Below are positions 305 through 62,961 of a stretch of 64,000 bases of DNA, piece after piece (positions within the stretch are counted from its first letter, which is position 1; every line of letters begins with the position of its first letter). A program made the position numbers and the translations under genes. Under the pieces are notes generated by a model, which was not told the DNA's origin, made no database searches, and saw only the letters and a list, made by a program, of their open reading frames with translations. Source of the stretch: Escherichia coli (lineage in GTDB: Bacteria; Pseudomonadota; Gammaproteobacteria; Enterobacterales; Enterobacteriaceae); the NCBI RefSeq assembly GCF_003334815.1, contig NZ_QOWO01000012.1. One strand, 5' to 3'.

Positions 305-1162
305 TCAGCCTAAAACTGCCAGTTTTTCGAGCGTTTCGAAGCCGTAACGCTGTAAAACGGGCAATAATTGTTCAGCTCCTGGCGTCATTGCCATACAAAA
401 GGCAATATTCGCATCGGCAGATTTTGCATCCGGGGCTTCATGTTCTAACAACCAGGCCGTTCGGCGAGCAATCGCTGCGCCAGAATCCACCAGCCGGGTT
501 CCCTCTGGCAGCACTTGTAACAGTTCTTCTTGTAGTAGAGGGAAATGGGTGCAACCCAATACAACGGTATCTGGCGGCTCTTTCATTCTTAACCACGGGC
601 GTAGGATACGTTTTAGTGCATCCAGAGAAACATCTTCGCCATGTAGCTTCGCTTCAGCCAACTCAACCATCTCTGCCGAGCCCAGCATTTCTATCTGGCA
701 TTCATTAGCGAAACGCGCGATCAGCTCATGAGTATAAGAACGTTTAACTGTTCCGCGGGTTGCCAGTAATCCGACAATGCCATTTGCCGTCAGACGTGCA
801 GCAGGTTTAATCGCCGGCACGACACCAACAACCGGGAAGTCGAACTTTTCGCGTAATGCAGGAAGTGAAACGGTACTGGCAGTGTTGCAAGCGACCACAG
901 CCAGCGCAAGGGGATAACGTTCTTGCACCGCGGTGACAATTGCCACCACTCGCTCAACAATAAACGCTTCGCTTTTTTCGCCATACGGGAAAGCGACGTT
1001 ATCGAAAGCATAAATGTAATGGAGATCCGGTAAGAGATGCCGGATCTCGTCATAGACCGACAACCCACCGACGCCGGAGTCAAACACCAGCACGGTGGGA
1101 CGTGGTTCAGAAGGTGTAGCTGCCAGACAAGGTGTATTCCCGTCCTGCAGTTTGGTAGCCAT
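305..1162 (-). CDS. murI: Glutamate racemase
   Basis: ORF 305..1174; translation is glutamate racemase (VFDSGVGG and GCTHFP motifs); start trimmed to the MATKLQ methionine; 5' end lies inside the btuB 3' end. Confidence 0.95.
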
Positions 1163-2951
1163 AGACTGTCTCATAATCTTTGTCGAACAGGTTGGCTATT
1201 TTACCACGAACTGTCAGGTGAGAGGTGACCGGATACGCAACCGCAAGATCCCACAAGCTCACACCGCCCATTTTAACGGTTTGATAAGGATAAGATGAGT
1301 AATCCTTATCATAGCGAGTGCCTAAATACTGATAAGTAATACCCCAGTCGAAGTCATACAACTGCCAGTCGAGCTGGTATTTCACCTGCTGTTTAGCACG
1401 GCGTAACAACGGCGTGTCGGTAATCGCATTGCGCGCATCGACATAATCATAACTCACAGTATGCGTCAGTGGTCCGGTATCAAAATTGGCGGTCGCCTCG
1501 ACGCCCTTAATCCGCGCTTTCCCTTCGTTGTAATATTTCAGGGTGTGATCATCATAATCGATCAAGTCACTGACATCGTTACGATATCCGGAAATACGCC
1601 AGTTCACCCCAGCGGTTAAGCCTTCAAACGCGCCTTCCCACTGTTTGCTTTTCTCCGGGTCCAGATTCGGATTTCCGTAGAAGCCATACAGTTGCCCCAG
1701 ATTTGGTGCCTTATAAGATGTCCCGTAGGAAGCAATGAAGCGATAACCTTCGATGAATTCCCAACCGGCGCTGGTTTGCCAGGTTCCATGACGACCAAAC
1801 TGTGAGTTATCGTCACTGCGTGCTGCGCCTTCAAAGGTAAAATCGCCGACTTGTTGCAGCCCGGTCAGATAGATGCCGGTATTACGTTGATCATATCCAT
1901 CCTCAACATAACCTGTACCCGGCGTCGTAGTCTGTTTCTGCCAGTCGACACCCGCACCAATACTACCGTGACCAACGATGACATTGTTTGCCCACTGGAC
2001 GGTGTATTGCTTCATCTCATCGAGCGTCGCCGACGAATCATAACGACCATAATGGGGATCGTAGTTGTAATCTTTGCTATGGCTATAGCTGGTAATGAGT
2101 TGTGATTTAATCAGTTCGCCGTTATAGCGCAGCCCGGCGTCCCAACTTTGGCTATAGAGTTTACGGGTATCGAGCAACGGTGAACCGGGAGAATAATACG
2201 CGTCATAATTGGTACGGTTATCATAGCCATAGCCGCGCACAAAGCCGCTCCAGGCATCAGTAAAGTTATGCTCCAGCGCGCCATAAAGCGTTTTACTTAA
2301 AAAACCATCGTTATCTGTCTGCGCTTGCGTTCCGGTATTACCATAGGCAACAACATCATAACCATGAGTATGGGCATAATCGCCCAACAGCGTTACCCGT
2401 GTCTTATCCCCCAGTTGTTGCTGCGTAGAGACATCATAGTTCTGATAACTATTGCTTCCCCACCCTGCTGAAATTTCCGTTCCGGGTTCATCGCGCGTCG
2501 TGATGATATTCACCACCCCGCCTATTGCATCGGAACCATAAACAGCGGAGCGCGGCCCACGGATATATTCAACACGCTGGACAAGCGCAATAGGGAACTG
2601 GCTAAGGTCGGCAGAACCACTCACCCCCGCCAGATTCAGGCGTACGCCATCAATTAACACCAACACATGACTGGCATTTGTACCGCGAATAAAAATAGAT
2701 GAGAGCTGACCTGAACCGCCGTTTTGGGTGATATCGACGCCCGGAAGACGGCGCAGCACATCATTGACCGAGGTCGACTGCCAGCGGTCGATATCCTGAC
2801 GGGTCACAACGGTGGTTGGTGCAAGCACAGTGCTGCGCGGCTGTTCAAAACGGTTAGCAGTAACGACGAGAGTATCCGGGCTGGTATCCTGTGCCCAAGC
2901 GGAAAATGCCGTGACGGAACACGCCGTCAGCAGCGAAGCTTTTTTAATCAT
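1107..2951 (-). CDS. btuB: TonB-dependent vitamin B12 outer-membrane receptor
   Basis: ORF 1107..2996; signal peptide [20 protein letters not shown], TonB box DTLVVTA, C-terminal aromatic residue; start trimmed to MIKK. Confidence 0.95.
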
Positions 2952-3191
2952 TGTAAAGCATCCACAATAGAAGAAGGATGCCGCAGGTTTCATCAATATT
3001 ACGCGATGATGAGAACCAGATGCGACGTTGGCCGGCAGGTCTTCGGGCTTGGAGGGGTATCTAAGATACTAAGAGATGATGACTTCCCACCGAATGGCAG
3101 TGTCCGCATAACGCAATCATCGCACCTTTCCTTACCGCTGCGCGTCAGCTCCAGATTCGCACTGGATTCCCTATTAACTCACAGGACCGGC
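2952..3191 (-). ncRNA. Adenosylcobalamin riboswitch (btuB 5' leader)
   Basis: About 240-nt leader upstream of btuB on the minus strand matching the recalled btuB leader (GCCGGTCCTGTGAGTTAATAGGGAATCCAGTGCGAATCTGGAGCTGACGCG...); element continues into the first btuB codons. Confidence 0.85.
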
Positions 3192-3319
3192 AAGTGGATG
3201 CTACAGGTTGTAACAAGTTACTGTCCAGACGTAGCTCACAAATAGGAATTCATCAAGATCTGGACATCTGATGAGCAATCCCTACAATCGCCGCGTACTT
3301 TAATTTTTCAGGATACATC

Positions 3320-4420
3320 ATGACCCCCGAACACCTTCCAACAGAACAGTATGAAGCGCAGTTAGCCGAAAAAGTGGTACGTTTGCAAAGTATGATGGCA
3401 CCGTTTTCTGACCTGGTTCCGGAAGTGTTTCGCTCGCCGGTCAGTCATTACCGGATGCGCGCGGAGTTCCGCATCTGGCACGATGGCGATGACCTGTATC
3501 ACATCATTTTCGATCAACAAACCAAAAGCCGCATCCGCGTGGATAGCTTCCCCGCCGCCAGTGAACTTATCAACCAGTTGATGACGGCGATGATTGCGGG
3601 TGTGCGTAATAATCCCGTTCTGCGCCACAAGTTGTTCCAGATTGATTACCTCACTACGCTGAGTAATCAGGCGGTGGTTTCCCTGCTATACCATAAGAAG
3701 CTGGATGATGAGTGGCGTCAGGAAGCGGAGGCCCTGCGCGATGCACTGCGCGCGCAGAATCTGAATGTGCATCTGATTGGTCGGGCAACGAAAACCAAAA
3801 TCGAGCTGGATCAGGATTACATCGATGAACGTCTGCCGGTCGCAGGGAAAGAGATGATCTACCGTCAGGTAGAAAACAGCTTTACCCAGCCGAACGCGGC
3901 GATGAATATTCAGATGCTGGAATGGGCGCTGGACGTAACCAAAGGCTCAAAAGGCGATTTACTGGAGCTGTACTGCGGCAACGGTAACTTTTCATTAGCG
4001 CTGGCGCGTAATTTTGATCGGGTATTAGCCACCGAAATCGCTAAGCCGTCGGTTGCTGCTGCGCAATACAACATCGCAGCTAACCATATTGATAACGTAC
4101 AAATTATTCGTATGGCGGCAGAAGAATTTACTCAGGCGATGAATGGTGTGCGCGAGTTTAACCGCCTGCAAGGGATCGACTTAAAGAGTTATCAGTGCGA
4201 AACCATTTTTGTCGACCCACCGCGCAGCGGTCTGGACAGTGAAACCGAGAAAATGGTGCAGGCGTATCCGCGTATTTTGTACATCTCCTGTAACCCGGAA
4301 ACGTTATGCAAGAATCTGGAAACATTAAGCCAGACGCACAAGGTCGAACGTCTGGCTCTGTTTGATCAGTTCCCCTACACGCACCATATGGAGTGCGGCG
4401 TATTACTGACCGCGAAGTAA
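3320..4420 (+). CDS. trmA: tRNA (uracil54-C5)-methyltransferase
   Basis: 366-aa ORF; SAM-dependent methyltransferase motifs ([20 protein letters not shown]); divergent from btuB. Confidence 0.95.
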
Positions 4421-8195: not shown

Positions 8196-8304
8196 GAAAC
8201 GGAGCGGCACCTCTTTTAACCCTTGAAGTCACTGCCCGTTTCGAGAGTTTCTCAACTCGAATAACTAAAGCCAACGTGAACTTTTGCGGATCTCCAGGAT
8301 CCGC
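8196..8304 (+). ncRNA. oxyS: OxyS small regulatory RNA
   Basis: Sequence GAAACGGAGCGGCACCTCTTTTAACCCTTGAAGTCACTGCCCGTTTCGAGAGTTTCTCAACTCGAATAACTAAAGCCAACGTGAACTTTTGCGGATCTCCAGGATCCGC matches recalled OxyS; divergent from oxyR; ends in a hairpin plus T8. Confidence 0.9.
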
Positions 8305-8312
8305 TTTTTTTT
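8286..8312 (+). terminator. Intrinsic terminator of oxyS
   Basis: Stem GCGGATC/GATCCGC followed by TTTTTTTT. Confidence 0.8.
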
Positions 8313-57798: not shown

Positions 57799-57897
57799 GC
57801 CGGATGCGGCGCGAACGCCTTATCCGGCCTACAAAAGTTTGCAAATTCAATAAATTGCAGAATTCATGTAGGCCTGATAAGCGAAGCGCATCAGGCA
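57799..57897. repeat. BIME (inverted REP pair)
   Basis: GCCGGATGCGGCGCGAACGCCTTATCCGGCCTACA ... GTAGGCCTGATAAGCGAAGCGCATCAGGCA. Confidence 0.85.
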
Positions 57898-62865: not shown

Positions 62866-62880
62866 ACTTCGCATTTGCAG

Positions 62881-62961
62881 GCAGGATAAGGCGTTTACGC
62901 CGCATCCGGCATTTGAGCAGGATGCCTGATGCGACGCTGATAGCGTCTTATCAGGCCTACA
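62881..62961. repeat. BIME (inverted REP pair)
   Basis: GCAGGATAAGGCGTTTACGCCGCATCCGGCA ... GCCTGATGCGACGCTGATAGCGTCTTATCAGGCCTACA. Confidence 0.85.

Follow-up and report, generated by a model that had tools for sequence, protein, structure and literature searches.

The 368-bp gap between btuB and trmA, at positions 2952..3319 of the window (that is, the whole 64,000-nucleotide stretch of Escherichia coli DNA that was analyzed), is confirmed as the textbook adenosylcobalamin (AdoCbl) riboswitch of btuB together with the back-to-back promoters of btuB and trmA, an arrangement which is long known and already annotated. It is almost certain that this is the E. coli K-12 btuB regulatory region, with an AdoCbl riboswitch that occludes the Shine-Dalgarno sequence and an independent trmA promoter. 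The analysis itself shows the sequence identity, the match to the aptamer model, the covarying helices, and where the promoters lie and how well they are conserved; ligand binding, occlusion of the Shine-Dalgarno sequence, involvement of Rho and the btuB transcription start are taken from the literature on the identical sequence. The riboswitch finding brings no new biology, and the locus is useful as a positive control only, in which element, leader and promoters were located from raw sequence.

The btuB-trmA locus and identification of the riboswitch

RefSeq coordinates were converted to window coordinates as window = locus - 201. Both the RefSeq annotation and the translations place btuB on the minus strand and trmA on the plus strand, and the divergent 368-bp gap described by the sequence-only reading is exact. 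Over positions 2800..3500 the identity to E. coli K-12 MG1655 is 100%, and every complete E. coli genome of the collection (5426 of 5426) has this region, with at least 80% of the query covered in 5418. The locus shares with the K-12 btuB riboswitch its sequence, coordinates, 240-nt leader, B12 box and the hairpins P13 and P14, and shows no biological difference from it. Coordinates of all features are collected in the table below.

Features of the btuB-trmA locus, in window coordinates. Leader positions are counted from the btuB transcription start and CDS positions from the btuB start codon.
Feature	Position	Strand	Details and source
btuB CDS	1107..2951	-	RefSeq and translation (BtuB signal peptide and TonB box)
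Rho-dependent region	2742..2871	-	btuB CDS +81..+210; function from PMC11162775
CDS hairpin	2908..2934	-	btuB CDS +18..+44, followed by AUUUUCC
btuB start codon AUG	2949..2951	-	leader +241..+243
Hairpin P14	2957..2982	-	leader +210..+235; GGCAUCC/GGAUGCU; sequesters the Shine-Dalgarno sequence
Hairpin P13	2990..3012	-	leader +180..+202; stem UCAUCA/UGAUGA; loop CGCG at 3002..3005 (+187..+190)
Cobalamin riboswitch feature (RefSeq)	3016..3206	-	existing RefSeq annotation
AdoCbl aptamer domain	3031..3191	-	leader +1..+161; Rfam/RefSeq and covariation
B12 box AAGCCCGAAGACCTGCC	3034..3050	-	leader +142..+158
L5 loop CGCG	3141..3144	-	leader +48..+51; proposed partner of L13 in a kissing loop
btuB sigma-70 promoter	3198..3227	-	-35 TGGACA 3227-3222, 18-bp spacer, -10 TAGCAT 3203-3198; 9/12
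trmA sigma-70 promoter	3261..3296	+	-35 TGGACA 3261-3266, 16-bp spacer, -10 TACAAT 3283-3288; 10/12
Predicted trmA 5' UTR, with Shine-Dalgarno AGGA at 3310-3313	3297..3319	+	read from sequence; 75% conserved
trmA CDS	3320..4420	+	RefSeq and translation from 3320 (TrmA)

Two other open reading frames of the region were rejected as genes, and neither is annotated in RefSeq: a plus-strand frame of 173 amino acids at 2724..3245, which is antisense to the btuB CDS, and a TTG-extended form of the btuB frame at 1107..2996. At its other end, the btuB stop region is overlapped by the murI start region over 56-68 nt (window 1107-1174); RefSeq gives murI as 305..1162 and btuB as 1107..2951, and the mechanical murI reading frame extends to 1174. 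The overlap of these two genes is already known from E. coli.

A scan of the whole window with the covariance models of Rfam 15 clearly recovered the proposed riboswitch. The Cobalamin family (RF00174, clan CL00101) matched the minus strand at 3017..3206 with 87.0 bits against a gathering threshold of 31.5 (E = 4.2e-20), across model positions 1-189 of 189, and this is the sole cobalamin match in the 64 kb window. The match lies on the sense strand directly upstream of btuB, the gene for the TonB-dependent B12 receptor. As a membership test we used the B12-box consensus from the 3' side of the aptamer (rAGYCMGgAgaCCkGCc), and this consensus, RAGYCMGNAGACCKGCC, has a single match in the 64 kb window, at 3034..3050 on the minus strand, and none in 100 shuffles. 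Through the 2002 work of Nahvi et al., the btuB riboswitch reportedly became the first for which ligand binding was demonstrated. The published B12 box spans +138..+162 (PMC3050690). On the identical sequence, AdoCbl represses a btuB translational fusion by 97% (PMC11162775), and PMC9600662 quotes a KD of 89 nM for Cbl for the E. coli btuB aptamer.

For comparison, 53 loci were retrieved from species-level genomes by one degenerate DNA pattern, the back-translated TonB box of BtuB. Wherever the retrieved sequence extends far enough, trmA is the divergent neighbor of btuB, and in Enterobacteriaceae the trmA-btuB gap measures 348-377 bp. The leaders of Salmonella, Klebsiella, Buttiauxella, Edaphovirga, Vibrio and one metagenome-assembled genome (MAG) give cobalamin matches of 79-108 bits. 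An alignment of 47 distinct intergenic regions from Enterobacterales and Vibrio was made with MAFFT and fitted to no structure; its B12-box columns are invariant or nearly so.

The divergent promoters of btuB and trmA

A consensus promoter scan of 2850..3450 (601 bp) found two sites, compared with 0.7 expected in shuffled sequences. They are one sigma-70-like site per strand, and both lie within the 128 bp of 3192..3319, which bears out the prediction of back-to-back promoters in roughly 130 bp. The btuB start at 3191 is located 7 nt downstream of the -10 hexamer, in independent agreement with the published start, from which the btuB ATG is counted as about +241/242 (PMC3050690). Directly downstream of the trmA -10 hexamer comes a G+C-rich discriminator, CGCCGCG (3289-3295), which is 88% conserved, and the trmA start is predicted from the sequence at about 3295-3297. 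About 25 of the 128 bp would thus be trmA 5' UTR, which leaves the two core promoters in about 100 bp, start to start. The promoters do not overlap: 33 bp lie between their -35 hexamers, and the start sites are about 104 bp apart (3191 and the predicted 3295-3297).

All four hexamers are 96-100% identical to those of E. coli across the 47 taxa. Of these taxa, 40 have TGGACA as the btuB -35 and 46 have TAGCAT, with its two non-consensus bases, as the btuB -10; the trmA hexamers are 99% conserved, also in Vibrio. Conservation is 54% in the btuB spacer, 49% between the btuB -10 and +1, and 52% in the DNA between the two -35 hexamers.

With its near-consensus -10 hexamer TACAAT, 16-bp spacer and G+C-rich CGCCGCG, which are conserved across Enterobacterales, the trmA promoter may resemble stringent or growth-rate-regulated promoters such as rRNA P1. 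It is said to have been mapped, and compared with rRNA P1, by Gustafsson et al. in 1991 in J Bacteriol. A predicted and ChIP-positive AtoC target has been placed in the trmA-btuB intergenic region, TGAGCAATCCCTACAATCGC at 3272-3291 or GCGATTGTAGGGATTGCTCA on the other strand (PMC3118216); the predicted site overlaps the -10 hexamer and the spacer of the trmA promoter.

The region also contains a perfect 8-nt inverted repeat, TGTCCAGA at 3222-3229 and TCTGGACA at 3259-3266, with 29 nt between its arms, each of which consists of one -35 hexamer plus 2 nt. Its conservation reaches from E. coli as far as Xenorhabdus and Edaphovirga. It could in principle be the paired site of a common regulator of trmA and btuB, in which case the promoters would not be independent. 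Conservation of the arms greatly exceeds that of the DNA between and around them and extends 1-3 nt past the hexamers, both of which speak for such a site, as does the AtoC site over the trmA -10. However, any two divergent promoters with identical -35 hexamers produce an inverted repeat by default, the analysis yielded no candidate regulator, and the distance between the -35 arms varies among genera (in Phytobacter massiliensis and UBA5654 the indels reach about 20 nt), so that a single dimeric operator is unlikely. We therefore hold a shared operator to be improbable and read the promoters as independent. Slightly less probable still is the broader idea that the -35 repeat and the invariant TAGCAT are constrained beyond recognition by RNA polymerase, for instance by a shared factor or by promoter competition that would couple trmA and btuB transcription; if this were true, tRNA modification (trmA) and B12 uptake (btuB) would be coupled at the level of transcription.

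Leader architecture and expression platform

With the G of GCCGG at 3191 taken as +1 (window = 3192 - position), the leader comprises 240 nt and the start codon follows at +241..+243. The ATG position of +241 agrees within 1 nt with the +242 counted from the published start (PMC3050690). The estimate of a leader of about 240 nt filling most of the gap is therefore accurate, these 240 nt being 65% of the 368 bp.

The aptamer is closed by P1, in which GCCGGU (+1..+6) pairs with GCCGGC (+156..+161), from G1-C161 to U6-G156. When the Rfam P1 pairs are mapped on the sequence, they are canonical only from +1, and five of the six upstream of it (3192..3198) are non-canonical in E. coli, which rules out these upstream RF00174 pairs as RNA structure and shows that the database feature overshoots the transcript by 15 nt. 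The Rfam/RefSeq feature thus covers the btuB -10 hexamer with its surplus (3192-3206); at the other end it stops at 3016/3017, without the P13/P14 expression platform (2957..3012). This shift of the database riboswitch feature relative to the real transcript is a minor useful point.

Downstream of the aptamer, the CGCG loop of P13 (L13) is complementary to the CGCG of L5, and these pairs are maintained in 98.9% of cases, essentially without variation; the kissing contact is thus supported by conservation only and not by covariation. An L5-L13 kissing loop is a feature of the cobalamin riboswitch family (PMC9600662), and in the E. coli leader P13 forms part of a pseudoknot with the aptamer, with loss of regulation in the EP1 mutant (PMC11162775). 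The Shine-Dalgarno GGA is located in the 3' arm of P14 (+229..+231, window 2961..2963). Ribosome access to this GGA is controlled by P14, and AdoCbl repression is lost or reduced in the EP2 and EP3 mutants (PMC11162775).

Structure prediction of the leader gave a divided answer. P13 and P14 are present in both the minimum free energy (MFE) and the centroid folds, but the aptamer core is absent from the MFE fold (-81.2 kcal/mol, z = -0.34), in which the 5' end pairs with the coding region. Unremarkable single-sequence folding is usual for riboswitches that depend on tertiary contacts and on their ligand. The single-sequence fold was discarded as a test, and the covariance model and covariation were used instead. 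The claim that the leader continues into the first btuB codons likewise stood in part: the riboswitch fold does not reach them, as it ends at +235 (2957), 5 nt before the AUG, but accessory elements are found inside the CDS.

The first of these is a putative attenuator proposed earlier at CDS +18..+48 (PMC11162775). In the fold of the first 62 nt of the CDS, the hairpin at +18..+44 has 10 bp and -15.2 kcal/mol with z = 0.19, so it is thermodynamically not unusual, and the terminator scan did not call it. The second is the segment CDS +81..+210, reportedly required for termination by Rho once translation is blocked (PMC11162775). It contains 43 C and 33 G, compared with 437 C and 490 G in the whole btuB CDS, and the C/G ratio reaches 1.4-1.6 in 60-nt windows over CDS +61..+180 against 0.89 for the whole gene. 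Bicyclomycin and the Rho R66S substitution relieve repression in fusions with at least 210 nt of CDS, and OmrA/OmrB-Hfq pairing has been placed within the early btuB CDS (PMC11162775).

The expression platform is translational and sequesters the Shine-Dalgarno sequence: P14 holds it directly upstream of the AUG, and the leader has no intrinsic terminator. A leader acting mainly by terminating transcription at an intrinsic terminator within the 5' UTR, which is how many cobalamin riboswitches of Gram-positive bacteria work, would account for the fall in btuB mRNA on addition of AdoCbl (PMC11162775) and for the hairpin followed by AUUUUCC at CDS +18..+51. However, the terminator scan found no intrinsic-terminator-like site on either strand of 2850..3450, and P14, the only strongly conserved hairpin downstream, contains the Shine-Dalgarno sequence; an intrinsic-terminator platform is therefore rejected as highly unlikely. 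Moreover, the drop in btuB mRNA results from the block of translation and depends on Rho within the CDS, and both effects disappear when P14 is mutated (PMC11162775). AdoCbl repression of translational fusions has also been reported to persist with unchanged read-through of transcription at the leader end. Firmicutes cobalamin riboswitches such as that of B. subtilis btuF resemble btuB in their aptamer core and in the logic of the L5-L13 kissing loop, but their platform is an intrinsic terminator (PMC9600662), whereas in E. coli btuB it is a Shine-Dalgarno-sequestering hairpin and Rho termination in the CDS is secondary.

Taken with the published experiments, these features support the following model of Shine-Dalgarno occlusion. 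A weak sigma-70 promoter (3227..3198, minus strand) starts the btuB mRNA at 3191, and its first 161 nt fold into the classical RF00174 aptamer and bind adenosylcobalamin. Binding would stabilize the proposed contact of aptamer loop L5 with the loop of P13, which in turn favors P14, so that the Shine-Dalgarno GGA is buried and 30S subunits are kept off. Rho then ends the untranslated btuB mRNA early, somewhere in the first 210 nt or so of the CDS, and the hairpin at CDS +18..+48 possibly adds to the shortening of the mRNA. A B12-replete cell consequently contains less of the BtuB outer-membrane transporter. Some 100 bp away, on the opposite strand, trmA is transcribed from its independent sigma-70 promoter (3261..3296) with the G+C-rich discriminator.

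Comparative evidence and further elements

Base pairs were counted on the 47-taxon alignment for the Rfam-derived pairs, P13, P14 and the kissing loop. Cells are paired in 87.5% of cases, against 36-47% with slid partners. Compensatory double changes occur in 16 pairs (75 cells), against 5-10 pairs in the slid controls, and the covariation score is 0.117 against 0.04-0.05; none of 500 shuffles reached the observed values. The double changes are found in P1, in P4 (helix 6), in P13 (helix 17), where three of the six pairs show them across taxa, and in other helices. All seven pairs of P14 (helix 18) are kept in 45-46 of 46 Enterobacterales sequences, and the support for this hairpin is conservation only. 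The peripheral helices 3, 9 and 11 are only 33-70% paired and several Rfam pairs of the P6 extension are non-canonical in E. coli, so that the alignment gives poor support for the fine structure of the P6 extension. That the leader DNA is conserved for protein sites or for the plus-strand frame 2724..3245, rather than for RNA structure, has next to no probability: GadX does footprint the 5' UTR DNA at +56..+81, +96..+105 and +123..+137 with about 50% repression (PMC3050690) and the 173-residue frame does span the region, but compensatory double substitutions are expected for RNA structure rather than for a protein site or a reading frame, the covariance-model score is far above threshold, the frame is antisense to btuB and unannotated, and GadX binding is compatible with the riboswitch as a further regulatory layer, hence is no alternative to it.

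The btuB leaders of Salmonella enterica and other enterobacteria share with that of E. coli the divergent trmA, the 348-377 bp gap, the invariant P14/Shine-Dalgarno hairpin and the promoter hexamers, and differ from it by indels in the peripheral P6 extension. The E. coli leader has an extra small hairpin, GUAUC-UUA-GAUAC at +123..+135, which is absent from many genera.

Three Xenorhabdus species (L026:3072-3304, L028:5892-6175 and L032:2880-3111) show a trmA-btuB gap of only about 200-250 bp, which keeps both promoters, with TGGACA-18-TAGCAT for btuB and the -35 and -10 hexamers of trmA. A cobalamin aptamer was searched for in the three gaps, with no Rfam match at the gathering threshold, nor any at E <= 1 in the L026 gap. 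These Xenorhabdus species thus seem to have lost the riboswitch but kept the divergent promoter pair; the preservation of the pair even there is a minor useful point. A GCTAAGTGCGTT-like short tandem repeat is present in the L028 leader. In the Enterobacteriaceae MAG UBA3516 (L021:2803-3325), an insertion of about 128 nt lies in the terminal loop of an aptamer hairpin, at the place corresponding to E. coli +88..+111 (GACACUGC...GGUGGGAAG), and the gap is extended to 490 bp; even so, Rfam scores this leader at 78.7 bits. The insertion (…CCCCAGGAGCTTACTGAAGTAAGTGACTGGGATGAGCGAG…) looks like a putative ERIC/IRU repeat element.

Further Rfam matches were found elsewhere in the window. The OxyS sRNA is located at 8196-8305 on the plus strand (RF00035, 139.5 bits, full length), which fits the oxyR-oxyS locus downstream of sthA. 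The naRNA4 family matches at 62880-62957 (plus strand, 78.6 bits), and ES036/CssrF at 57834-57875 (plus strand, 48.2 bits) and 38440-38481 (minus strand, 39.6 bits); these families presumably correspond to REP-type repeats. In addition, the ClpQY (hslVU) promoter element matches at 44125-44182 (plus strand, 63.6 bits), and the gammaproteobacterial L31 ribosomal-protein leader at 39461-39513 (minus strand, 60.1 bits).
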